DNA from: Carcharhinus longimanus
Taxonomy: Eukaryota
Assembly (NCBI GenBank): GCA_030264375.1
Contig: JASCQW010000032.1
Location: 7,244,831-7,308,830, forward strand
Length of the DNA: 64,000 nucleotides
Direction of reading: 5' to 3'
Below the pieces are notes generated by a model. That model worked only from the letters and a program-made list of their open reading frames with translations. It was not told the origin of the DNA and ran no database searches. This document shows, in pieces, positions 31,400-62,369 of the stretch (position 1 is the first letter of the stretch; every line of letters begins with the position of its first letter). Made by a program: the position numbers and the translations under genes.

Positions 31400-33490
31400 T
31401 GATACTGTTAATTAATCTTTCTCCTCAGGTATTGCCATCACATTCTGTTTCAAATCTGACATTGCCTTGAAAAACAACGACCACTGCATCTTTGCAAACT
31501 ACCACACAATTTCCAGCCCCCCTTTCCCCTCCACGGTTCTTGAACATGCTATCGTTTCCAAATCCCTGTTATTCATTCTCGGAACTATATTTGAATTCCT
31601 ACAGCATGTTTCTGCTCTGTTCCAGTACAAGATCGCATCCTATTACTCTGTGATTATGCTCTGCTGTTCCTTCTTATCCTGTCCACAGCCTTTAACATTG
31701 TTGACTTCACCATTCTCTAGAGCCCCATTGCTACCAGCCAGCTGGGTGAGACTGATCTTGTCTGGTTTCATTCCTTTTTGTTCAGTCATTGCTATTACAT
31801 GCAATGGTTTCTTTCCCTGCTCCTTTGGTGTTCCCCTTCCATTTCTCATTTACATGGCCCCCATTGGCAACTTGATCTAAAAATGCAACTTCAGAGTCCA
31901 AATGTTCAACACACAACTCTACCTCACCACCACCTATCTTAACCCATCCACTGCCTCTGAATTATCTGACTACTGCTCCAACATTCAGTTCTGGATGAGT
32001 GGAAATTTCCTTGCAATTTAATATGTGAAAGGCCAAAGCCTTTGTCTTCAGTCCCTGCTGCAGTCTCTGTACCATAACCACCATTCTCTTCCTGGCAATT
32101 TTCTAAGGCTGAACCAGATTATTCCTAACCTTGATGTTATGTTTGACCTTGAGATTAGCTTCTGATCAAATATTCATGCTATCACCAAAACCAGATCTGA
32201 TTCCAGCTTAGATAGCTGATCACTATAGTTGATGGCACTGGAACTAGCCATCACATTGTGTTTCAAATCTGACATTGCCTCAAAAAACAATGATCATTCC
32301 ATCTTTGGAAACTACCACCCAATCTCCAGCCTCCCTTTTCTCTCCACAGTTCTTGAACATGCTATCATTTCCAAATCTGTGTATTCTTTCTCAGAACTCC
32401 TGGGTTGAATTCCTGGGTTTGGAAAAGGAAATGTCACCACAAAATTGATTGGAAAACAGATGAGGAGAGCATTATACTTAGCCATGAATGTCAAATATGC
32501 CATCACATATTTTGCCTGACTTTATCCTTGCATCAGCTCATCTGCAGTTGAAACCCTCATCCATATCTTTATTCTCTCTTGACTTGAATATTCCAGTGCT
32601 TTCCTGGTCAGCCCCTCATCTTACATCCTCTACTGGATACAAATCAGCTTCCCATCCATTGACTCAGTCTACACTTCCTGCTGCTTCAGCTAAGCAGCCA
32701 GCATAATTAAGGATCCCACACACCCCAGACATTCTCTCTTCCACCTTCTTCCTTCAGGAAAAAGATACAAAAGCCTGAGGTGACATACCACCGACTCAAG
32801 AACAGTTCTTCCCTGCTGCTATCAGACTTTTGAACAGACTTACCTTGCTTTAAGTTGGTCTTTCCCTACACCCTAGGTATGACTGTAACACTACGTTCTG
32901 CATTCTTATGTTTCCTTCTCTATGAATGGTATGCTTTGCCTGTATAGCGCACAAGAAATAATACTTCTCACTGTAGTTAATACATGTGGCAATAATAAGT
33001 CAAAATCTATAAACTCAAGATCATTCAAAACTTTGCTGCCTCTATCTTCACTCACACCAAGTCCTGTTCACCCCTCACCTTTAGGGTCACTGAACTACAT
33101 TTTCTGCTGGTTAAGGAACACCTCAAATGCTAAAATTCTCATCCTTGTTTTCAAATTTCTGCATGGTCTCACTCCTTCCTACCTCTAATCTTCTCTAGCT
33201 CTACATGAACACTATACTCCTCCAATTCTGGCCTCTTGCCCACCTTCAATTTGGATTACCAATGATAGCTGTGCTTTCATCTGCCTCAGTTCTAGAAATG
33301 TCTCCTAAATTTCTCTTCTCCTCTATTTCTCTTTCTTTCATTAAATTTCCCTAAAAACCTAACCATTGACCAAGCATTTGGTGATGTGCTCTAATAGCTC
33401 CTTATTGTGGGTTGATGTGAAATTCTGTTCGATAACACTCCTTTGAATATTTTACTATTAAAGGCACTATATAAGTTCAAGTTGTTGTTT
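31400..33490 (+). mobile_element. Degraded L2 LINE (RT to 3' tail), interrupted by a mosaic duplication and a Rex/Babar insertion
   Basis: ANYHTIS..PF.STVLEH (NYRPISNLPFLSKVLE-like), FKFLHGLTPSYL; tail tactattaaaggcactatataagttcaagttgttgtt. Confidence 0.75.
32685..33010 (+). mobile_element. Rex1/Babar-type LINE 3' end
   Basis: AASIIKDPTHPRHSLFHLLPSGKRYKSL...RLKNSSSPAAIRLLN-like C-terminus. Confidence 0.8.
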
Positions 33491-39330: not shown

Positions 39331-39643
39331 GTAAAAAGTCTGACAACACCAGGTTTAAGTCCAACCGATTTATTTGATAGTAAACTCACTAGCTTTCGAG
39401 GTTACCCNNNNNNNNNNNNNNNNNNNNNNNNNNNNNNNNNNNNNNNNNNNNNNNNNNNNNNNNNNNNNNNNNNNNNNNNNNNNNNNNNNNNNNNNNNNNN
39501 NNNNNNNCAACACCAGGTTTAAGTCCAACCGATTTAGTTGATAGTAAACTCACTAGCTTTCGAGGTTACCCCTCGACTTAAACCTGGTGTTGTCAGACTT
39601 TTTACTGTGTTTACCCCAGTCCAACGCCGGCATATCCACATCA
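39331..39643. mobile_element. Fold-back Penelope pseudo-LTR element with a 12-bp TSD (spans a gap)
   Basis: gtaaaaagtctgacaacaccaggtttaagtc and its exact reverse complement; flanked by tgcgaattcatc (39319-39330) and tgcaaattcatc (39644-39655). Confidence 0.8.
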
Positions 39644-46539: not shown

Positions 46540-49430
46540 ATGCATGCAGCATTTGTAACAAAATAGATTAATTGACAGTGCAGATTTTAATAAATATGCA
46601 TGACCTGATAGCCATTGCAGAGACATGGCTGCAAGATGACAGAGTGGTATGTGAATATTCAAGGGAACATGACATTTAGGAAGGACAGGAAGCTAGGAAA
46701 AGATGGAGGTGTAGTTCTGTTAATTTAGGATGATATTAGTACAGTACAGAGAGAGATTATCTTAGTTCTGGAAATCAAGGTGTAGAATCAGTTTAGGTAG
46801 AAATTAAAAATAACAAAGAAATCACTTATCATCCAGACTCAATGTTAGTTATGTTCTCTCTCCACAGATGCTGTCAGACCTGCTGAAATTCTCCAGCATT
46901 TTCTGGTTTTGTTTCACATTCCAGCATTGGCAGTAATTTGCTTTTACCTGGATGATTAATTCATAAAGAGTGTTGCAGGACAGTTTGAGAGCAACATGAT
47001 TTAGAACAGGTTATACCAGGTCTGGTAATGTGTAATGAGACAGAATTAATTAATGATCTTATTGCGGAGGTTCCCCTAGGTAGCAGTGATCAGAAAATGA
47101 TTTAATTTCCCATTCAGTTTGAGGGAGAGAAGAGCTTAAATAGGGTAATTATGAGGGTATGAAGACAGAACTGGCTACAAGGAACTGTGAATTTAGCTTC
47201 AGGGATAAGTCAGAAGAGATGCAGTAGTAGACATTTAAGGAGATATTTTGGAATAGTCAGAAAATATACATTCCAGTGAGAAGGAAAGGCTCTAAGGGAA
47301 GAACGTACCATCCATGGCTAGTTAAGAAAGTTTATGGAAGTAACAAATTGAAAGAAAAATCATACAGTTCCACAGAGAGGAGTGGCAGGTCAAAAGATTT
47401 GACAGACTATAAAGAACCATAAAGAATGACTAAAAGATTAATGAGGAAGGAGAAATGAGAATACCAGAAAAAACTAGCTCAGAGTATAAAAACGGGGAGT
47501 AAGATTGCCTATTGGAATTTAAAAAGGGAAAGAGTAAGTAAAGTAAGCTATGGCCCTGACTCAAGTGAGAGTCTAAGAATTGATAATGGAAATGAGGAAA
47601 TGGGCGATGAATTGAACATATGTTTTGTGTCTGTCTTCACTGTAGAGGATACAAATTACATCCCAGAAATAAGTATGAATCATGAGGTGAAAGTGAAGGG
47701 GGAGCGTAAAACAATTAGAATCACCAGGGAAAGAGACCTGAGAAAATTCTGAGAACCATTGGTTAAAAGTCCACAAATCATAGAATAACACCGAAAATTC
47801 ACCATGGCTAATCCATCTAACCTACACATCTTGGGACACTGAGGGGCAATTTAGCGTGGCCAATCTGCCTAACTTGCATATCTTTGGACTGTGTGAGGAT
47901 ACCGGGAATACCTGAGGAAAGCCAAATAGCCACGGAGAGAACATAACTCCACACACACGTGAGTCCCTGGCACTGTGAGGCAGCAGTGCTAACCACTGTG
48001 CTGCCCTGACTTCATCCTTGGATCTTAAAGAAAGTGTCTGCTGAAGTAGGAGATGCATTAGTTTTAATTTTCCAAAATTTCAGAGTCTCTGGTAAAGCCT
48101 CAACAGATTTGAAAATGACAAATATAACTACGCTATTCAAGGAAGGAGGGATTCAGAAAGCAGGAAACTATAGGCCAGTCAACTTAACATCTGTCAGAGG
48201 GAAAAGTACTGGAATCTATTGTTAAGGATGTTATAGCTATATAGAAATCTCCATGCTTCAGGCAGAATCAACGTGGTTTTGTGAAATGGAAGTCATCTTT
48301 GAGTAAATTATTGGAATCCTTTGAGGAAATAACAAGCAATGTGGACAAAGGGGAACCCATCGATGTGCTATACTTAGACTTCAAGAAGGAATTTGGCAAG
48401 CTTGCATCAAATGTTACTATGCAAAATAACAGTTCATGGTATAGGGGTAACATATTAGCATGGATAGAGGATTGATTAACTAACAAAAAAAGAGATAGGT
48501 ATATATGGGTCACTTTTGGGTTATAAGATGTGACAAATGCCACAGGGATCAGTGCCGAGGTGTCAACTATTTACAATTTATATCAATGACTTGGGTGAAT
48601 ATATAGTTGCAAAATTTGCTGATGACACAAAGGTAAGTAGGAAAAGAATATAGATAGGTTAAACGATTGGACAAAACATTGGCGGGGGAGAATAATATTG
48701 GAAAGCAAGTCTATTTTGGCAGGATGTATAGGCAGCTTGTTATTTAAATGGAGAGAGATTGCAGAACTCTGAGATGCAGAGAGACCTGGATCTCCTGGTA
48801 CACACATCACAGAAAGTTAGTATGTAGGTACAACAGATGATTAGGAAGGCAAATTGAATATTGTAGTTTAATGCAAGTTGATGAAACCGCATGCAGAGTA
48901 TTGTGTTCAGTTTTGACCTCCTTATTTAAGAAAGCAATTAAATGCGTTAGAAGTCATTCAGAGAGCATTCACTTGACTGATACCTGGGATACGGATTTAT
49001 CTTATGGGCTGTATTCATAGGAGTTTGGAAGAATGAGAGATGATCTTATTGAACGTATAAAATTCTGAGGGGACTTGACAGGGTGGACACTGAAAGGGTA
49101 TTTCTCCTTGTGAGAGAGACTAGAACTTGGGCACACAATTTAAAAATAAGGGGTCTCACATTTAAGATGGAAATGAGGAGAATTTGTTTCTCTTGATCAT
49201 GAATCTTTGAAAAATTCCCCAGAGAGCAATGGAAGCAGGAGCATTGAATATTTTTAAGGCAGAGTTAAGGTTTAAGTTAGATTCTTAACTAAAAAGGGAA
49301 TCAGAAGTTATCAGGGGTAGGCAGGAATGTAGAATTGAGGCCACAATCAGATCAGCCGTGAATGGTCTTACTGAATGGCAGTGCAGGCTCAAGGACCGAG
49401 TCGGCTCTTTCTGTTCTTAATTCATATGAT
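46540..49430 (+). mobile_element. Near full-length degraded CR1 ORF2 (APE endonuclease + RT) with nested Penelope fragment and SINE
   Basis: DLIAIAETWL (endonuclease), LGSSD, GNYRPVNLTS, DVLYLDFKK, AKFADDTK, then the 3' tail; many stops. Confidence 0.9.
47776..48006 (-). mobile_element. HE1/V-SINE-like SINE nested in CR1
   Basis: gtgaggcagcagtgctaaccactgtgctgccc head; ggggcaatttagcgtggccaatc core. Confidence 0.85.
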
Positions 49431-49659
49431 TCATTAACGCAGGCCTTGTGGTTTTTGTTCAAAAAGACAAGACATGTTGCTGATCCCTGTGCTCTGCAAT
49501 ACGATTGCTAAGATCAGTTAAGATTCGTACACAAGCTCCTGTATTGGGGCTTCAGGAGACAGAATATGAGTGCGGTGCAGAGTGGGGCATCTTCTGCTGC
49601 CCATCTGATCAGGACAGAGGCTCATCAGTGCTTCTAACATGAATTTATTTGCCCTGTGA

Positions 49660-49866
<207 letters not shown>

Positions 49867-50389
49867 TAGAGAATAGCATAGTGGGCTGGACGCTGGAGAA
49901 AGTTCAATTCCAGCCTCGTATCATTCCATCAACTGTTTACTCTGTCCTGGAAGATTCAAAATTCCTCCGGGCACTCTCAGTCCAGTCACTGGTTTTGACC
50001 TGGGCAGCGTTGGTGTAAGATTGGCCGAAACTAGGGAAGGAAAAATCAACTGAGGTTTCCACTCCTAATTGTCACACAGTGACTCCTCCTGGGAAGTAGA
50101 TATGTGTGTCAGATGAGGATATTATCAAACATGGTAATGATAGTCTTCTCCTGAATGGTCAAGTCACATTCGCTGTCCAAGCATGGAACTCAATGCATGG
50201 ACTGGCAGAACTCTCCCCTTCCCCTCCCCCCATTGTTTTATTACAAGTTGATGAAGAATGAATCAAAAGCTAGTCTTTACTTGAAATTGATTGACGGAGT
50301 GGAAATATTGCAGGTATTAGTCTTCTGACTTCACTCTATTCCACTCTTATGACCGTATCTCTTTATATGCCCTTTTTATAATCAATAAG

Positions 50390-51330
50390 CTAATTAACAA
50401 ATAAACTAATTAATTGAAATCCCCTTAAAGGGCCATTGTGATGAAAAATTTAACTTAATAGGTTAAATTAAAATGTTTTTTGCAGGACTGATGGTACTCC
50501 ATGCCTGCAGTGATCAGTAGTGGCCTCTAGTGTACTGGTGGATACTTCGTACTCCCTCTCCAGGGACACTTGGACACTAATGTAGCCATGGAAGAGGAGA
50601 GACTGTCGGGCCAAATAATCCCCTCAATTGCCCGCTGCCTTTTCCTGTGAATGGCCACTTGAAGAGGCCAGCAGCAGCCTCACCAAAATGTCCTCCACAC
50701 AAGGTAGCATAGATTCTCAAATAACCAAACAGTGGCTGCAACCTCACATAATCTGTGTAGACGTGGAACATAGACTTCCTGAGGGTGCAGATAATACAGG
50801 TGACCTGTGAGTCTGCGAATCATATTAATCGGCTGTTGTACTGCATGCAACACCCTCCACACTAAGTCCCCAGTGGTAATGGGGAGCATTCCCATGTGGA
50901 GAGCCCTCAGCTGGAGACTCTGCTACCTCCGGATGGCAGGACAGAACGCCACACGCAGTGTATCTAGGCAGTTGACAAGGATTGGAGGGTGGGCATCAGC
51001 AGCCCACACAGGAAACTCTTTTGTACAGAATCGAAAGGTACGGAGGGCTCAAATTGTGAGATTGAACTTTCCAAGGGAAGTTTCAGGACATGGACCAATG
51101 TGAAATTCTGTTCAAACAGAGGTTGGTCCAGACAGGAGTCCACCACTTGCTTGAACCAATGAAAAAGCAAACAGGCCTGACACCAGGGTTTTAAGGCTGT
51201 GGATGGCTTTGCATGCTCCCAACAGAAGACACAAACATGAGCTTCGCCCTTGTCCCAAAATGGGACGCCACTTATCCGTCCACTGACTGAAGTGCCTCAA
51301 ATGCAAATTAACTGATTGGTAATGCATACT
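50390..51330 (-). mobile_element. Tx1-clade L1 LINE remnant (zf-RVT C-terminus), probably internally deleted
   Basis: GDLVWRVLHAV and FHVYTDYVRLQPLFGYL resemble the Tx1 ORF2 C-terminal zinc-finger region; AT-rich tail near 50390-50480; the 50900-51330 part is less certain. Confidence 0.65.
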
Positions 51331-51744
51331 TCCACAAAAACGTAAAACTTAAACCAGTGCCATAGACAGCTCAATCACACCACAATTTTTAAATTCCACT
51401 AGCTGCAATTTCACATTAGATTTGAACCCATGTCCTTGAGCATTAGCTCAGGACTCTGTCTCATTATATTACCATTACATCACCCTCTCTGGGTTAACTA
51501 ACTATCCAATCATTGTCCTTCCCTGTATGTACCTAACATCAGTAGATTCATTAACACCCATAACCACCTGCCCATCTCCAGGAAAAGTCATCACCTTCAA
51601 GCAAGAAAGAAGTCTCACAACACCAGGTTAAAGTCCAACATGTTTGTTTGGAATCACATTCAGGCAAGAATGGGGGAAGGAAAGTTTTTTTTAAAAAAAT
51701 GTATTGGACCTGGAAAATGAGAAAATTGTTGCTGTGCTCCATAG

Positions 51745-51929
51745 GCTGTCCGGTCGCTAAAGGAAACAATGGATGACTGCTGGGACCAGGATGCAGAGGC
51801 TCGGCTCACAGCTCAGTGTGCAGAAGAGAGGATGGCAGAGCTCATGGTTATGTGGGATAGAAACAAGTCTGTGAGTCCCACAGTCAATCCCATGTCACAA
51901 TTTAGTACAACGGCCATGCAGAATGAACG
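51745..51929 (+). CDS. BMPR2: BMPR2 exon 11 (end of kinase domain)
   Basis: ccatag|GCTGTC...TGAACG|gtaggt; 185 nt; [61 protein letters not shown](R). Not in the ORF track. Confidence 0.96.
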
Positions 51930-52349
51930 GTAGGTAGCCAAACAGCAAAGAAGTGCATATCGACCTGAATTTCCTTGAGTCCATTTTGGCTGTTGCTTCA
52001 GACCCAAGCACAGTATTTATACCTCCATTTTTCTTCTCTTGTTCCGCTGATCAGACCCTTCTTTTCTTTCTCCTCCCTTTATTTGCCATACTTTTTTTTA
52101 TTCCTCCCCCATGGGTGCTCTGCCCCTCTCCACTACAGTCACTACCCAACCCATCTGCTTTCTTACTTCCCTCCACTGTTCCATGCTTGAATCCCACTTG
52201 GATATGCTCACAGCATAAGAACTTTTGCCCACGTTGGTTTTCCCCGAAAAGCCTCTTGAGGTTCCTACATCCTTAAAAGCAGCAGCCCCAGTTTACCTAT
52301 TTCCCCCCCTCTTAATCATTTTCCCCCTTTCTCCTGTCACCAACTTTAA

Positions 52350-53720
52350 CCAGTACAAGGAGTTCATGGATGTCTTTATCACCATGATTGAGACAACTCA
52401 TTCAACTGCTTCTGCTGCCTCTTGTACGCCACGCTAAGCCAAGCCTCCTCCAAAACCCATGCCCTAACCCTCAGTCTGCGTCGTTCTTTATTATCATACC
52501 TTATGCCCTTTTTAAATGAGACCCATCAGCTGCTTCCTTGACCTCATGCTAAAGAGCTGGTTACTCAGTTTCCCTTCCTAGCCACGAAACTAGCTGAAAT
52601 TGTAAATAGTTTCCACTCTTCAGATACTGTTCACCTTGCCTTCAAAGCCATCATTATTCCTTCCTTAGGTTGCCCATCTCTAACTCCTCTTTCCTCTCCA
52701 AGTTGAAAGTGCTATCACTTCCATATTCCTGTTATTTTCCCTGTGATCTCAAATCTGAGCCTTTCCAGTTTGGCTTCCAGCTCTGCCACAGGACTGAAAT
52801 AATTCCAGTAACGATCACAAATAATGTCCTCTGGCCATGACCTTGGTGTACTTTTCCTCTTTGACCTATTTCAGCCTTTGACAAGGTCAGCCCCCTCCAT
52901 CAGTACTTTTCCTTGATTGTCAGCACATTGGGATTGTTCTCTCTTGATTTAAATCTTACCTTTCTAATAACTACCAGAGTATCTCCAGCTATGGCTTCTT
53001 TTCCCACTCCTTGCACCATTACCTCTAGAGTCTCCCAGGGTCCTGGCCTTGCCAGGTCTTAATCCTTAAGTACATGCAAACTCTTGGCGATACCATCTCT
53101 GAGAGTTGAGGTCAGCTCTTGCATGCTAACAGTATACAGTTCTACATTACCACCGCCTCTCTTGACCCCTCCATTATCTCTTTGCTGTCAGATTGTTAAC
53201 CTAATATTCAATCTTGGAGCAGCACAATTTCTACAATTAAGCATTTGTATGATCAAAGCCTTTGAAAGGGATTTTATGGCCTTGCTTGTCCCAAAATTGC
53301 AAGATTTCGCCCGAGGTCAACGGACCTTCCCTCGCCCACCCCAATTCCCGTGGTGGTTCTGGTGTGGGGGAACAATAGGCAGGATTCCAGCCATTGTCTT
53401 CATTTCCCACCACAAACTCTGTTCCCCAACCATCAATATCATCCTCCGCCGCCACCTCCCACTCACTGTCTGTGGCTGAACCAGATTGTTTGTAATCTCA
53501 GCATCCCATTTGATTCTGAGGTGAGAATTTCACCATGTACGTTTCCCAGGATGAAATCTGTCTCCTTCTACCTCCCTAATATTGCCCACCTTTAGACATA
53601 TCTAAACTCATCTACAGTTAAAGCTCTCATTCATGCTTTTTCTATCTCAGACTGAATATTCTAATGCTACCCTCTCTGGTCTCCCTGAACCCCTTAATTC
53701 CTCCTCTAGCCCCTACACTC
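52350..53720 (+). mobile_element. Degraded L2 LINE RT fragment
   Basis: ccagtttggcttcc..ccacaggactgaa (QSGFR..HSTE-like), gacctatttcagcctttgac (DLSAAFD-like), ggagtc.cccagggtcc-like; collinear with 31400-33490. Confidence 0.7.
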
Positions 53721-53777
53721 CCATTATTCTGCTTCACAGCATTATGTAACTTGATGTTTGGGCTTGTCTTATTTCAG

Positions 53778-55057
53778 GAACCTTTCACATAATCGCCGAG
53801 TGCCAAAGATGGGTCCCTACCCGGATTATTCGTCATCCTCATACATCGAAGACTCCCTTCACCATTCCGAAGGGATGGTGAAAAACATCTCCACAGACAA
53901 CTCCACATCTGGTACCCCGTCAACTACCAGTGAGAAGAATCGCAATTCTATCAACTATGAAAGACAGCAGGCGCAGGCTCGCATCCCCAGCCCAGAAACT
54001 AGTGTTACCAGCTTGTCTGCAACAACCACCACCACAGCAGGCCTTACCCCCAGCACCGCCATGTCCACCATATCAGAAACACAATACTCTGATGACACTA
54101 ACACACAGGCAGGCAATTTGCTGCCATCCTTGGGCCCCACCCCAGTGTGTCTGCAGTTGACTGAAGAAGATCTGGAGACCAACAAGCTAGACCCTAAAGA
54201 GGTGGACAAGAACCTCAAGGAGAGCTCAGATGAAAACCTGATGGAGCACTCCCTCAAGCAGTTCAGTGGGCCTGATCCTCTCAGTGGAAGCAACCCCAGT
54301 TTGCTGTACCCGCTCATTAAGCTAGCAGCTGAAGTAACTGGGCACCAAGATTTCTCCCAGCCAAGCACCAGTCAGGCATGCCTGATCCCTGACATCCCAG
54401 CCACTCAGATGTACCCTCTCCCCAAGCAACAGAACATCCCAAAACGACCCACCAGCCTCCCACTGAACACTAAAAATGTGGCTAAGGAATCACGGCTGAA
54501 GTTCAGCAGCAAGCACAAGTCAAATCTTAAGCAAGTGGAGACAGGAGTGGCGAAAATGAACACTATAAATGCAGGTGAGCCCCAAGTGGTAACAGTCACA
54601 GCAAATGGCATTGCTGGAAGGTGCCATACAGGAAACTCACATCCAGTGGTTAAGCAGTATGCTAATGGTTCGGTATCTGGTCCTCAGACATCCAACTCTT
54701 CAAGCCACCGGGGCCATGAGACCCTCCAGTCCCAGTTTAGTGGGGATGACAGCAGAGTGAACATAAACCCCAGCCCAGATGAGCACGAGCCACTCCTGAG
54801 GAGGGAGCAACAGGCCACGCGTGATGACATTATTACCGAACGGCTAATGGACAGGAGAGACCGGCCACTCGATCAGGGGCGGACAAACTCCAACAACAAC
54901 AACAACAGCAACCAGTGCAGTGTGGCAGATGGCACACTGGCCAGTGACCAGGATCACACAATAGCACCAGTAGCACGACGGCAGGGGAGGAGAGCTGAGC
55001 GGCCAAACTCACTCGATCTTTCATCAGCCAACATTTTGGACAGCTATAGTATGCAGT
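53778..55057 (+). CDS. BMPR2: BMPR2 exon 12 (long cytoplasmic tail)
   Basis: tttcag|GAACC...GCAGT|gtaagt; 1280 nt, inside ORF 53758-55065; [84 protein letters not shown]. Confidence 0.97.
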
Positions 55058-57269
55058 GTAAGTAAGAGGGGCTGCTTAAAATGTTACTGATATCGGTTAT
55101 TTAGGGTAACTCTCCCTTCATTGTCCAATGAGTAAAATGAGGTATTGTTGTTCCATGCAGACTTAAACTGTCATCGTATACTAAAGCGAAAAAAGGGGAA
55201 AAAAAGACATAAATAATGAACTACTGTACTAATGTGCAAGTTTCGTGACGCCTGGCCACCTACCATTTTGCAACACTGAGATAAATAGATTAGCTGGACA
55301 TCATAATCCAAATATATATTGTGTTGTAATATTTCAGCAAAGAAAGCCGTCAGTTAACATGGTATGTTTCATACTTTTTAACTTCTTCGATATCTTAGAT
55401 GACCTACTTGCTTTCTTTGAATCTCCTTCAAGTTGGCTGAGATCTGAGTTACATCAAAACAACATTAAATTTAAGTTATTAAAAGTGTTTGCTATTCTCG
55501 ATCGCAACACATATCTTGTTCAGTTTTATTTGTTTAATTGCGTATCACTAATATTAAGTATCAATTGCCTGATTATAACTATCATGTGTCCCATACTAAC
55601 AATATTTACATAACATTTTTAAGACATGGGATCGGACCATGCCATGATATGCAGAAGGATTCAGTTTCTGTCGTTGTGACTGAGGCGATGTTGTGGGTAA
55701 AACATGCTCCTTCCATCGGTACGAAACAGGTGCGGTGAGATCGTCTCATTTAGCTGATTTTTCAATTTCTAACTCCATTACCATGGGCATCAATTTTCAC
55801 AAATATTTCCTTCATTTCCTGGAGCCACAAGTTAGCATTTTGGTCCAACCGTCAGAATATTATTATGTTAATCCAAATAGTTTTTTTTCTAATTGCTGTC
55901 CGTCATATGCAATATGTAATATGTAGATGATCATCAAAACAACGAATTGAAAGTCATTATTTATTGTGGGGAATAGCACAAGCCGCAAATGAACTTATGC
56001 TGAAGTCACCTATGCTGAAAAGATACGACTAATGGATAACTTATATAGACATTACTTCTCATTTTACCTTTGGCCATAACGTATAGCATGCGTTTCCTTT
56101 CATAATTATCACTTGCCACTTATTTGGCGATTTTCTACATCATATTGTGATTCAAAATATCTCCAGGATTGATGTCATTCACAGATTATTGAATTCTTCT
56201 CTATCGTTCAACAACCTAGTGATGGAGACGTCATTGTCTGAAGGTAGAGAATATTCCTTAATCATTAAAGTGTAACAACCAGTTTATATGAATGACTTTT
56301 CCCCATTGAGAGACGTTTCTCTACATTGATGGGATGTAGGCGTTGCTGTCGACAAAAACATTTATTGCCCATCCCTTGTCGCGTTTGTGGAAGTGCCTCG
56401 GAATTTTCTTCGAAAGCTACTGCATTTCTATTTTACAGATGCACCAACAGTCTTACTTGAGGGGAACCTGCGGAATTTGCCATCTGATGTTGAATAGTCG
56501 ACACATTGCCAGACAAGAACGTTGAGTGGCATAAGTCTTCCAAGTGGCGGTGTTTCCATCTACACTTCTCGCTTTCAAAATAATAGTGTTTTTTTTTATT
56601 TGAAAGCTGCTTCATGAGGGAAATAGGATTTTCTCCTGCATTGCTTATGGCGGATGTTCACAAAGCAACCAGTGAGTAGCATCTCGACTTAATTAGATGC
56701 AATAATGCGTCAATTTCGTGGCATTATTATTTTTTTATTATTGTCTTATACTTCTTTGCTATTGCAGGATTAGTCTATTTTCAGAGTCCTGCGGGATATT
56801 CCATCAGTCCCCTGATTTTGTCCTGTCACTGCATGACAAGATTTGGTGATACAGGAGTTAACTGTTCCCCAAAGAATAAAGATATTCTGAATTGCTGTCG
56901 ACCTGACCTCACTGATAACCCTAAACCTCCTCCCGCCACCATGTATTCCAGCACACAAACACACACACACACACATACACACACACACGCGCGCACACAC
57001 ACACACATTAATGCGTGCCAGTGTGATTCTCTGCATGCATGTCATAACTGCTCTTGTTTTGCCTGGAGCGAATGTTACTTCCTACTTGCCGATCTAAGAT
57101 TGGTTATGCTCCAGAAATTGCTGACTTCAGAAATGCGCTGCCTCATGTAATTATGACGTTACAATTAACATCTTCAAGACTATTATCACAATTGTTACCC
57201 GTTTGTCTAAGCTTGCAGTGGCGTCGAATCTGGAAGAATGTAGTTTTCTCAACCAGCAATGAAAGAGAG

Positions 57270-57560
57270 TTGATTTGATCTGATGTGTTTTGATTTGATA
57301 TTGTCATCTGTAGTGGTGTACATTGCAAAGCACTGTTTCATGCTCGTGTACAGACAATTCAGACCCGACATACAGAAGGAAGGGAAAGACTGCAGAATGT
57401 GTTGTTGCAGTTATAGAAGGGGAATAGAAATAATCAACTTAATGTGATTCAAGTCCATTCAGAAGATTGATGACAACACATATGAGGCTCTTTTTTGAGT
57501 CGGTTGGTACTTGTCCTCGGATCTTTGTGTTTTTCTTCGCCAGAAACGAAATGGAAGAAT
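57270..57560 (-). mobile_element. Highly diverged Rex1/Babar 3' end
   Basis: Aligns by eye, as reverse complement, to 32750-33010 (tcttttttgagtcggttggtac, gtccattcagaag, tgcagaatgtgttgttgcagttatag). Confidence 0.7.
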
Positions 57561-60500
57561 ATGCCGGTGTACATGGATCCTTAATTAATTACTTCTGTTT
57601 GTGTTCTCTCAAAAGCTAAACGATACCAATAGCTTGATGGTTCAGGATAGGAATTGACTATCAGATAACGTATTAAGTTGATAGACAATGGTCCTGTAAA
57701 ATATAATCTTATGATTGGAAATGTTGTTCATCTTTGGAACATCTTACTCCACAATCATGATGGTTTCCTCATCAGGTCGCAAAATCAATCTTTTTTTTGA
57801 CGTCCAGTTAACTACAAAAATTCTCGACGGCAATACGCTCACTGATATGTGTTACCACCACGCCTTTTACCCCTTGATTCTGATTCTTTTCCATTCAAAT
57901 TTTCTCCATTGGGTAAGCAGCCATTCCAATTGAGCAACGATGCTTTATTGCATTTACCTTATATCTGCATGAATATGTCGTTTTGCTTTTACTTACGCTG
58001 TTTCCAAATCAAATTCCTTGCATTTAGATGTGGTATTGTAGCACTGTCGTATTTAATCGTTTCCTTATTCAACCTGATTCTGCCTGCTTTTCTGCCGTAC
58101 CATCCAACAGTAAGACATAACATCGTTTGTTCTCTATGCATATACATATTTGTAATGTTTTCCAAGCAACATTTATTTTCGTAATTAGGTCCAAGCACAA
58201 ATGTGGACTTCAACGTGAGTACCCACAACACAATCCTTCTACGGTGCAAAACGTCAATAGTCCGTATCTAAACATAATTGACCACTGGCCAGATCCCTCG
58301 ATCTTCAGCATTTCTCGAAGCAGATATTTATTTTTTCTGATCTTTCATTTAGTTTACACCTGGCAATGTTTCAGGGTCGCCTGAGGCTGTTTGCCATCCG
58401 CAGATTACTTCTGGGGAGTCCATACTTTCTAGCTTACTCCCTAGCTAATGAACATTTCAACCAAATGCATTAACATTCCTGGTTTCTACATCGATTGTAT
58501 ACTCTCAATCTTTATCACTGGAAGCAAAGAAATGTTCTATTTTAGCTTGGGATACTTAGATGCAACACAACACTCAGCAGTCTACGTCATGGTTTCAAGC
58601 AGAAAGCACAAATGCATAGTCAAATCCAATCTTTGCATTCATTTGGTGTTATCAACTGCATTTTGAATTCCAGGATCTGAACGTAAACTGATTATGCCCG
58701 GGGGTCTCCATGCAAAGCCCTAAACATTTCAGCAGGGAGGAGGAGCCCTCGTGCAGCAACACTTGCTTATGAGTTCAATAACGAGAGTGTTGTGTGACAA
58801 ACGCAGCTCCACGTCTCATTTTTAAAAGTAATGTTTCAGGAGTTGAATATTCAACTGTATTCTTTCACGATGTTATTGCTTCATATTATGTCAATTGAAC
58901 AAATCCGCTGTTAAATACTCTGCTAATTTGATTGTTTTGAGCTACCTGCATCGTTGATAACCATTTCAGTTTCTGTTAATGAATACAATAAAATAATGAT
59001 TATTAACTAAACAAACACATTTCAATACTTCCTTTTGAATCTTGCTGGAAAAGTGGTGTTTATATATGGAATTAAAATATACATCGCACTCACTAAATGT
59101 ATGATTAAAGATGAATATTGTTTTAAAATCTTTAATTAGTGAGAATGCAATCTTTAAGTAATTGGATGTCTGCACGACTTGATTTTAATATTTGAATATT
59201 CAATTCATGCGCAGACAATATTTTAGAATAGGTAAACTTCGCGATTTCTCATCTGTCAGCAGCATGTATTATTCGGTCTCTACTGCTCAAGACGAAATTT
59301 TCACTTAAGTGTGGGACTTTAACAGGCGTTTCCCGAAGTAAATAGAATTACTGGAAGATTGAGATAGAACACAGTTTGTGAATGCACATCTGACAGAGAT
59401 GATATCCTTCATCCAGGAAGACACAGCAACATTCAGGAAAATGTCGATGGACGACCTCTGCTTTCGTGGACTCTCTGGCATTATCTCTGAACCTAAAGCC
59501 AAGAATGGCAACTTGTGAACGCTACATGCAATGTAACTCGATAATTACTTGCATATATGCTAATACCCAAATTAACGTTGTGAANNNNNNNNNNNNNNNN
59601 NNNNNNNNNNNNNNNNNNNNNNNNNNNNNNNNNNNNNNNNNNNNNNNNNNNNNNNNNNNNNNNNNNNNNNNNNNNNNNNNNNNNGACATCAGTTCAGCTT
59701 TCCACATCATTCTTATACCCCTAATCCTCACTCCCTGCCCACCTTCCAGAATCCTCTTAATCTCCATGCCTTTTCATATTCCCCAAGGTCCCTCCATGAT
59801 GTTATGTACCCTCTGTAGCTACTGGATTAGTATCCAGCTTGTAGAATCCTCAGGAGCTTTGTAAACTCACCTAAACCCTCAAAAATACTGGGCATGGCAA
59901 ATACAAATGTCCCCTAGGGTTGTCAGTACAACCCCAACATCATAAGATGTACATGTGGGGTCGTGACCTGACCCTAATTGAACCTCATTCCAAAAATGGG
60001 AAGATTGCATGGGCCCATTTTTATACAGGAGATTTAAGTTTGCCACAAGAAAACAATTTTTTCCTGATCCCAGGAGGACACAAAATTCTGGCCTCAAACG
60101 TGCACAAAGTGACTTCTAGAGTTTAAACAGCTAAATCCAGGCAATGTACCAGTCTGATTTCTGCTGCATGTCCAGCTGCAATTACTTTACCTGCTGGAAC
60201 ATGGGCTTACAGGTTGTTCTGAAGCCAAGTGGACCGAATACTGACCCCCTTTAGCTTCCATTAATGAGCTAGCTTGACAGGTCAATTGCCAGTATCCTGC
60301 TATGCCATGAACGTGGCTTTGAGCTTCTGTTATCAGGCATGCCATCTTTGTGCCACTTCGATGTCTGCTTACTTCTTTTCTCACCCCTTGTCCAAGGGTA
60401 ATAATCATATGGCCAATCACATGTCCCTTGTAGTCTATTTCATCCCCTACTCCCCACATTGCATAAGTCATTAGTCACTGAGCAAAAGGCTGAGATAAAA

Positions 60501-62369
60501 GTGGCACATTTTCCATTGGATTCAGTCACTTTCCTCATAGACTCGGAGAATTGTTGGCAATGCTGTGCTCTCATTCAGAGCTACAGAATTGTTATTATCC
60601 TTCAAATAACAAATGGCTTCTTTTCCAAACGCAATTCAGTGTGTCAAAAACAAAGGTGTTTTGATTTGGATGAGTGCTTAGATATGCAAAGTTTAGCAAT
60701 GCAGCAAAACATTGAATTTCAATTTCTAATTATGCTGAAAGGCTTGTGACGAGAGGCAGGGACATGAATAGTAAACAAGCTACAATGGTGAACTCTGCAT
60801 TGTAACTCAAGAAGTGTGANNNNNNNNNNNNNNNNNNNNNNNNNNNNNNNNNNNNNNNNNNNNNNNNNNNNNNNNNNNNNNNNNNNNNNNNNNNNNNNNN
60901 NNNNNNNNNNNNNNNNNNNAGTGTGATTTAGATAGAGATGCCATAATCCTGCAAGAGTGACAACTTGTCAGCTTACAAGCTGATGCCTGCCAATTGCTGG
61001 CTGAGGAACCGTAGATGGTGTCCAAAAACAGAGAACTGATAAATTAAATGTAAAGGAAATTAAACACAGGTCCATACTATCCCCAACGATAGTGGCAATG
61101 TGCAGCTAGCCCATATAGAAACAAATCAGTTGTGAACTTGTTTGGGTTCATCTGTGATGCCCATGCAGTTGAATAGACTCCTCATGCACACTGTTCAGGG
61201 ATAATTGCTTGGCAAACACAAAAATATTGTCGTTCTTAAAAGAAAAGCAAATCAGCTTTAACAAGAAATTGGTATAATCAGCCCTTGTGTCCTGTTCCAT
61301 CAGCCTATGAAATGGTCATGTCTCAGATCTGTCCAAGCTGAGAATTGTGGATTAATCACAGCAGAAGACAAATGCCAAACTTGTAGTCCAAAAAGCAATC
61401 CAGCAATTCAAGGGCCAAGCAAGAAGGGAATGCATAGTATGAAAGTAAAGCAACTGCCCAGAAAGCTTGGCCTATAATATAAGTTTTTACAAAAGTAAGT
61501 GACCAAAGTGCACCATTAGGAGTGAATTTACTTAATGGCTACAGTCTGTAATTTCCACTTTGGGCAGTACAATAGACATCTGTCAGGCTCCCAGGTAGGT
61601 CAGGTATTTTATTGAGCTGACTGTCCTAATTTGAACTACAGTCTCATCTGAATCTCAGCTGGGGCGGGTGATTGGCTCCTCACAATTGGCCACAGCATTG
61701 CAAGGCCAATAAGATAGAAAACAACTAAGATTTCTGGTCTCAATCACCCCCTTGTGCACATGTTGGTGAAGAGAGAATGGGATTCAACATCCTAGAGGCC
61801 CACTCTCGACTTACTTGTGAAAAATAACAACGGAACTGTGCTGCAGCGAGGTGTCGGTGCTGTTTGGCAAGGAATGAGAAAAACATGCACTTATTTGCAG
61901 TCTTTATATGCTATGTTGTATGTATCTGTCACATTTAGGCATTGTACTTGGCTACATGTGCAAAACACTCTCTTTAAGAAAGAAAAAAATGAAAGCATTC
62001 ACTTTGCACTGGGTCCTTTCTCACATGGATCAGGCACTTATAAGGAATTTCCCATATTTCTACTTGCCAGTTTCTACCGTCACTCCACAGGGAGTAACTA
62101 AGCTGTGACTTTCCAGAAACAGGCCCTTGTTAGCTACTAACATTCACAACATTGCCCGAAATCCCAGACTATCTGTAGGCAATGCCATAGAAAACCAACT
62201 GATTTTTAAATAAATCATATAAAAACTTAGAGTTGAAAATAGTTCAATACAAATTTTGCAAAAACTTTTTTGAACAGAATGTGAGGCAACTCAATTCTAA
62301 ATAAGTGAATGTGCTAAAGTGACACAGCAATGTTCTGTTCATCCCCCATTCCCTCACCCTCTTTCCCAG

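Follow-up and report, generated by a model that had tools for sequence, protein, structure and literature searches.

Zones in which the germline mutation rate is locally raised are already known from dogs, from human transcription start sites (TSSs) and from the flanks of excised transposons, and the block described here is real and unusual beside them. It lies in intron 12 of BMPR2 in the shark Carcharhinus longimanus, at positions 55166 to 59584 of a 64,000-nucleotide window, the whole stretch of DNA that was analyzed (GCA_030264375.1, contig JASCQW010000032.1, positions 7,244,831 to 7,308,830). The gene was identified by a kinase-exon search of the PDB (best match E = 5.7e-29). Change in the block runs at about 1.4 to 3 times the rate of the surrounding DNA, and the block is, with high probability, a standing hot zone.

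Hypomethylated CpG islands in dogs resemble the block in their kilobase scale and stable location, with mutation raised about 2.3-fold over the mutation classes and no CpG excess among the mutations (PMC12465969). These elements are annotated CpG islands, and PRDM9-free recombination is held responsible for their effect. Unlike them, the block has 37.5% GC, is intronic and shows no GC bias, and the other CpG-rich domains of its genome are not hot. Non-methylated islands (NMIs) and broad NMIs of cold-blooded vertebrates are alike in other respects. They combine a high observed/expected (o/e) CpG ratio with background or low GC (background GC in zebrafish), extend over several kilobases, may lie away from promoters and show less CpG decay (PMC3583005). 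The block differs from the NMI-like domains sampled here in its threefold non-CpG divergence, its unreduced CA/TG and its extreme depletion of CC/GG and AG/CT. In human somatic genomes, hypomethylated kilobase-scale regions are mostly coldspots (PMC11077091).

Excision of DNA transposons in grasses offers a further likeness, because break repair there adds point mutations over about 3 kb beside a structural scar (PMC5023962). The grass tracts reflect one event per site, whereas the excess in the block shows at two repeat ages and again in recent divergence, and its junction has no identified transposon. Human TSSs likewise show a local germline rate peak tied to chromatin or transcription state (PMC13712754, PMC12658150). 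Those peaks are hundreds of bases wide and sit at gene 5' ends, whereas the block has no known start site. The germline rate of sharks, 7e-10 per base per generation, is among the lowest measured in vertebrates (PMC10587355). A literature search that covered few subscription papers found no AT-rich, GC-unbiased, multi-kilobase hot zones in sharks.

A preliminary description, made from the letters of the window, had noted about 1.5 CpG per 60 nt from the exon 12 donor to an assembly gap. Counting bore this out: positions 55060-59584 hold 114 CpG in 4525 nt (1.5 per 60 nt) at a GC content of 0.375, giving an o/e of 0.72. The depletion described elsewhere was also found, with o/e values of 0.25 for 49000-53780 (58 CpG in 4781 nt) and 0.16 for 59685-62369 (18 CpG in 2585 nt); the figure of about 0.5 CpG per 60 nt was slightly low for the first of these, which has 0.7. 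That the CpG rate approaches the random expectation was slightly overstated, the o/e of the block being high at 0.73 (95% confidence interval 0.60-0.88). The block was correctly called AT-rich and no CpG island: its o/e exceeds the classical threshold of 0.6, and its GC lies below the 50% that the same definition demands. As in fish NMIs, o/e is raised over control DNA at near-background GC. Per kilobase, o/e was 0.56-0.84 over 55001-59500 and at most 0.57 in the remainder of the window, while no 1-kb window in the flanking 100 kb on each side exceeded 0.50. The genome background has a median of 0.26 (674 one-kb windows from 80 evenly spaced 10-kb pieces). Both edges of the block are abrupt in o/e, the right one falling inside the gap.

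Dinucleotides were compared with 574 four-kb windows from a 1.44-Mb genome sample, made up of 120 spaced pieces, flanks added around CpG-rich matches and the neighborhood of the window. CG exceeded that of the block in one of the 574. None had a lower CC/GG (0.90 in the block, median 1.16) or a lower AG/CT (0.92, median 1.11), and the CA/TG of 1.31 is ordinary among them. On the BMPR2 sense strand, T exceeds A over 55166-59584 (skew 0.076 ± 0.019, against 0.006 over 1-53780) and the G-C skew is negative, a mixed picture that was not used as evidence. The opposite extreme of composition was seen at C1:13,000,001-13,010,000, where o/e is 0.00-0.10 across about 8 kb at a GC of 0.41.

Contig sets from four runs (X1, X2, X6 and X7) were compared with the window, the counts resting on the longest listed pieces. 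Run X1, which may be the sample behind the assembly, holds 0.96 of the sampled window words. Its contigs cover the block over about 4480 nt, where three letters differ and two are gap letters, at a depth of 9-12 against 8-11 in the flank. Runs X2, X6 and X7 contain the block at 96-98% identity, and their intron 11 differs from the window by about 1%. The non-repeat parts of the block match only themselves in the genome, and depth is single-copy in all four runs. The block is thereby confirmed as real and not a consensus error. An assembly or consensus artefact might be suspected from the termination of the block at a gap and from X1 being possibly the assembly's own sample. The agreement of the X1 contigs at all but three letters and the presence of the block in the other three runs refute it, leaving it a negligible chance, and the poor-quality or altered consensus that had been among the first candidates falls with it.

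No hidden gene emerged from the block, Pfam searches of 21 of its 38 frames giving weak matches only (E 0.02-0.1) and none at cut-off; an Rfam search of the block and a search of metagenome contigs for a relative's locus each returned no matches, and no RNA data set was listed as carrying the sequence. Profiles of 18 library families detected no further repeat families in it. As to a mobile element or captured segment, the block is single-copy, has no long terminal repeats in its assembled part and no coding remnant in the 21 of 38 frames, with its right end in the gap.

Two fragments of long interspersed nuclear elements (LINEs), both antisense to BMPR2, serve as clocks of the long-term rate. 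Their clade labels, Rex/Babar-like (as in the preliminary description) and CR1-like, are presumed. A second repeat had been placed near 56360; it is present and larger than thought, and corresponds to the CR1-like fragment (Table 1). Copies with fewer than 100 aligned non-CpG sites or insufficient flank were excluded. The LINE tail has a non-CpG Kimura two-parameter distance (K2P) of 0.326, compared with 0.102 (median) and 0.231 (maximum) among low-CpG copies (74 family copies). For the CR1-like fragment, K2P is 0.665 against a median of 0.211 and a maximum of 0.556 (94 copies). Both are thus about 3.2 times their family median and the most diverged of their families. The best genome matches of the tail are 71-75% identical and those of its sibling at 32660-33060 are 85-89% identical (each among 39 non-self matches listed), in keeping with the earlier remark that the repeats of the block are far more scrambled than their siblings.

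Membership of an old subfamily was considered as a source of this divergence and rejected. In a star-like tree of 46 copies, where the median tip measures 0.09, the LINE tail has a private tip 0.357 long. Of the 76 differences in the tail, just one resembles a subfamily mark, at a site common to 6 of the 11 best matches and to none of 34 random copies. The family consensus has an open frame for the C-terminal part of a reverse transcriptase; the frame of the tail itself yielded no family name in Pfam. By codon position the tail differs at 6/21, 4/21 and 9/20 sites, figures that say little in so short a tail. In the CR1-like fragment, 0-fold sites differ at 119/269 (0.44), the highest of 55 copies, and are not below 4-fold sites (24/73, 0.33). 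In the four copies that follow it in divergence, the 0-fold/4-fold ratio is 0.71-0.89, as expected of older subfamilies. The excess of both fragments was gathered after insertion, by neutral decay. An extension of the LINE-tail homology past 57590, with a divergence gradient, was also tried and dropped, because shuffled sequences score as high (156 vs 173 ± 20).

The relatives report on the recent rate. Against X2, the block differs at 97/4347 positions (2.23%) and intron 11 at 21/2284 (0.92%), a 2.4-fold excess (p = 5e-5). Against X7 the values are 88/2482 (3.55%) and 35/2493 (1.40%), or 2.5-fold (p = 9e-7). As the elevation persists between closely related organisms, it points to a standing rate and not to a single burst. 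Among the 40 of 426 differences that were listed, nine lie in the block and four of these occur only in X2, so that the excess is not limited to the branch of this genome. CpG/TpG-type changes account for one of the nine, compared with 8 of 27 in intron 11 (listed differences; small numbers). The idea, raised in the preliminary description, of heavy and CpG-blind substitution of host DNA is therefore supported by both repeat copies and by the divergence between organisms. In X7 (record 29), an 86-nt stretch of the block, 55579-55664, is swapped for 12 letters.

The substitution spectrum of the two fragments was set against other copies of their families, with the CR1-like family restricted to K <0.25; paired values give one figure for each fragment. 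C>A is raised 4.6- and 5.8-fold, T>A 4.3- and 3.4-fold, T>G 3.8- and 2.9-fold and C>G 2.0- and 2.7-fold, with non-CpG transitions at 1.7-2.5-fold; all non-CpG classes thus lie between 1.7- and 5.8-fold. No effect of a GG/CC context on transversions was seen in these copies. CpG>TpG changes number 2/21 in the block copies against 254/753 elsewhere, and the LINE tail has 1/16 decayed CpG sites (p = 0.02 against an ordinary 31%). In a simulation, a 3.2-fold CpG-blind rate with methylation unchanged moved o/e from 0.45 to 0.70, and with half methylation to 0.83. Because the simulated background exceeds the real one, methylation has probably had to fall to some extent as well.

Both block copies have an equilibrium GC of 0.35, within the 0.35-0.37 of other copies, and hence there is no trace of GC-biased conversion. 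This bears on the possibility that the block, like the islands of dogs, is an unmethylated site of meiotic recombination that stays in place and does not depend on PRDM9, where the repair of meiotic breaks would raise all mutation classes. Dog sperm-hypomethylated CpG islands, at 2.34-fold in all mutation types, come near in fold and scale (PMC12465969), and some cartilaginous fish have a PRDM9 with a weak SSXRD domain or none (PMC5519329). All non-CpG classes are indeed raised by about the expected two- to threefold or more in two copies, and CpG decay is low. The GC bias of such a hotspot is absent at both repeat ages, the block is AT-richer than its flanks, and the other CpG-rich domains of the genome reach just 1.11-fold; this explanation is accordingly held to be unlikely. 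A search for SSXRD (PRDM9) gave no match, and the controls gave none either.

How far the block is an ordinary NMI can be judged from the other CpG-rich domains. Among 120 random 10-kb pieces, eight reached a 3-kb o/e of at least 0.5. CpG decay is lower in repeats whose flanks are CpG-rich (116/510 vs 3169/9768), and their median divergence is 1.11 times that of the others (45 vs 1002 copies, p = 0.12), with 2/45 copies reaching 2-fold against 29/1002 elsewhere. Since repeats of these domains are barely faster, compared with 3.2-fold in the block, the block is more than an ordinary NMI. A long-unmethylated segment, one of the candidates first proposed, agrees with the low CpG decay and is insufficient alone, as other CpG-rich domains change only about 1.1 times faster. 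A fish-type AT-rich NMI in which two repeats happened to be old or unusually decayed would fit the high o/e at background GC of fish NMIs (PMC3583005), the frequency of such domains (one of them around a PR-domain exon), and their lower CpG decay and milder AG/AT/GC shift. Nevertheless, both block copies stand at 3.2-fold. The tree and the 0-fold and 4-fold sites exclude repeat age, and age cannot lift the divergence between organisms. An island of this kind is distinctly improbable as the explanation.

The notion that all CpG-rich domains are hypermutable arose from one copy in L110 (K 0.30) and failed on the larger sets (48 vs 958 copies, p = 0.27; 45 vs 1002, p = 0.12). The domain concerned, C105:30,002,000-30,036,000 (L110, L156-L158), covers about 34 kb at an o/e of 0.5-0.8, dipping over 30.010-30.012 Mb, and a GC of about 0.42; its composition suggests a broad NMI or methylation valley. 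A LINE tail inside the domain is diverged two- to threefold (L110:5328-5494). Parts of this domain show a milder form of the dinucleotide shift of the block (AG/AT/GC), and there may be a continuum between the block and CpG-rich domains. At C148:9,991,000-10,004,000 (L165, L128), the CpG-rich DNA surrounds a PR-domain exon (PF21549, E = 3e-7), which is what a developmental PRDM gene should show. AT-rich CpG-rich domains were also found at C112:59,960,000-59,968,000 and 59,998,000-60,004,000 (L159, L162, L119). A 201-amino-acid frame there, L162:7931-8533 on the minus strand, has no Pfam match and is reminiscent of a Harbinger-type transposase.

H3K36me3, DNA methylation and mismatch repair are linked. 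Germline promoter, Polycomb or centromere-like chromatin that excludes methylation together with mismatch or base-excision repair could leave the block poorly repaired, with no extra breaks. Such chromatin would be consistent with the raised non-CpG classes and the low CpG decay, and testis-active human TSSs are hypermutable (PMC13712754). TSS peaks are hundreds of bases wide (PMC12658150), whereas the block measures 4.4 kb or more. It has no Rfam match, and other domains that look unmethylated are not hot; this explanation is very unlikely.

At its left edge the block abuts a structural junction. Contigs of X2 (record 14) and X7 (record 28) match exon 12 and the start of the intron up to 55169 and then diverge, continuing for 4685 and 9170 letters, none listed as matching 49000-59584. 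A further X2 contig (record 15) opens with 108 unlike letters, joins the block at 55166 and so has a different left neighbor, while an X1 contig (record 6) runs across the joint. The state seen in the window is probably the derived one, because X7 is more distant from the window than X2. The AACT overlap may be microhomology used by a deletion or move on the side of this genome, or else a target-site duplication if the relatives gained an insertion. The junction would fit a loss of 9 kb or more here as well as a move of the block into the intron. Relocation would mean that the block evolved in a fast, unmethylated compartment elsewhere and reached intron 12 solely in this lineage, its left joint lying at 55166. 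The unlike sequence past 55169 in X2 and X7, the other left neighbor in X2 and the two abrupt edges agree with it. A plain deletion gives the same picture. The single genome copy at single-copy depth, the lack of terminal repeats and the lack of a coding remnant in 21 of 38 frames speak against relocation, which is held to be improbable. A sex-limited copy is disfavored because depth is not halved.

The cause tentatively favored, at somewhat short of even confidence, is a long-lived germline site of damage or breakage in probably under-methylated DNA, with error-prone repair synthesis and without interhomolog conversion. It is preferred because the spectrum is led by transversions, GC bias is absent, the edge carries a scar and other CpG-rich domains do not share the rate. 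Recurrent lesions or breaks at the block would be mended by error-prone synthesis without interhomolog gene conversion. CpG would remain undepleted partly as CpG-blind changes outrun CpG decay and partly through low methylation. The left-edge junction would be a microhomology-mediated deletion at a fragile site.

Several observations weigh against a standing hot zone or against this cause. The comparison with X6 gave 47/2524 (1.86%) in the block and 39/2885 (1.35%) in intron 11, a 1.4-fold excess that is not significant (p = 0.08). All three comparisons (X2, X6 and X7) include the branch of this genome itself; the counts for the relatives come only from the longest pieces listed, and X7 has hardly any coverage of 57.9-59.6 kb. 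Own-organism differences (X1 contigs) number 3/4482 in the block against 0/5831 in the comparison (p = 0.08). The long-term rate and the spectrum rest on two repeat copies only, and with a shorter, mixed consensus the tail ranked 1/36 and the CR1-like fragment 3/54, not first. The transversion share is inflated by saturation, chiefly in the older copy, or by misalignment, and the shift in the transition/transversion ratio has p = 0.07 in the younger copy. The simulation is rough, with a background o/e of 0.45 against a real 0.27. The unreduced CA/TG (1.31) fits poorly with full demethylation, and (CA)n tracts are common and on their own explain nothing. Breaks, lesions and low methylation at the block are all inferred.

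A wider generalization is doubtful: sharks might carry rare, sharply bounded, multi-kilobase 'mutator islands' at fixed loci. These would be neither ordinary NMIs nor GC-biased meiotic hotspots, and would keep a threefold germline rate led by C>A and T>A through two LINE-family ages, detectable from sequence. If this is true, such islands should stand out by their dinucleotides, with CG high, CC/GG and AG/CT low and CA/TG normal. Outside mammals, maps of how the germline rate varies over 1-10 kb are poor. With its three internal clocks (the two LINE fragments plus the orthologs in relatives), the block lends itself directly to tests that tell breaks, methylation and repair access apart as causes. 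It also calls for caution, as a faster background rate alone can raise CpG o/e, and repeat ages based on divergence can err threefold locally.

Table 1. Features of the BMPR2 exon 12 to exon 13 region (positions in the window)
Feature	Position	Strand	Remarks
BMPR2 exon 12 (long tail exon)	53778..55057	+	Intact; open frame 53755-55065; AG/GT read from sequence; exon number from the preliminary description
Exon 12 GT donor	55058	+	Read from sequence
Start of intron 12, first 108 nt	55058..55165	+	1 CpG; collinear with exon 12 in relatives (X2 record 14, X7 record 28)
Structural junction relative to relatives, 4-nt overlap AACT	55166..55169	.	Ends of X2/X7 contig matches; spanned by X1 record 6
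Block (very probable hot zone)	55166..59584	.	Single-copy, AT-rich; CpG o/e 0.63-0.78 in 4/4 sub-parts; CA/TG normal
Decayed CR1-like LINE 3' fragment	56316..57243	-	Split by (CA)n microsatellite
(CA)n tract with CGCGCG core	56944..57013	.	Alternating purine-pyrimidine
5'-truncated Rex/Babar-like LINE tail	57278..57590	-	Non-CpG K2P and CpG decay in text
Assembly gap, 100 N	59585..59684	.	Conceals right edge of block; o/e 0.16 beyond
BMPR2 last coding exon (exon 13), through stop codon	62370..62626	+	Read from sequence

The open frame and the AG/GT signals uphold the earlier statement that exon 12 is intact, and the last coding exon encodes a C-terminus that presumably resembles that of BMPR2. 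The alternating (CA)n tract may have the potential to form Z-DNA. At the right-hand gap, X1 record 8 stops at 59584 and X2 record 16 extends 858 letters past it. The X1 contigs break with a 30-nt overlap (55058-55087) that begins exactly at the GT donor of exon 12, which may be chance. Elsewhere in the window, contig ends overlap across 100-N gaps, by 7 nt at 60820 (60813-60926) and by 64 nt at 98% identity at 39408 (39344-39571), so that some of these gaps probably conceal little or no sequence.

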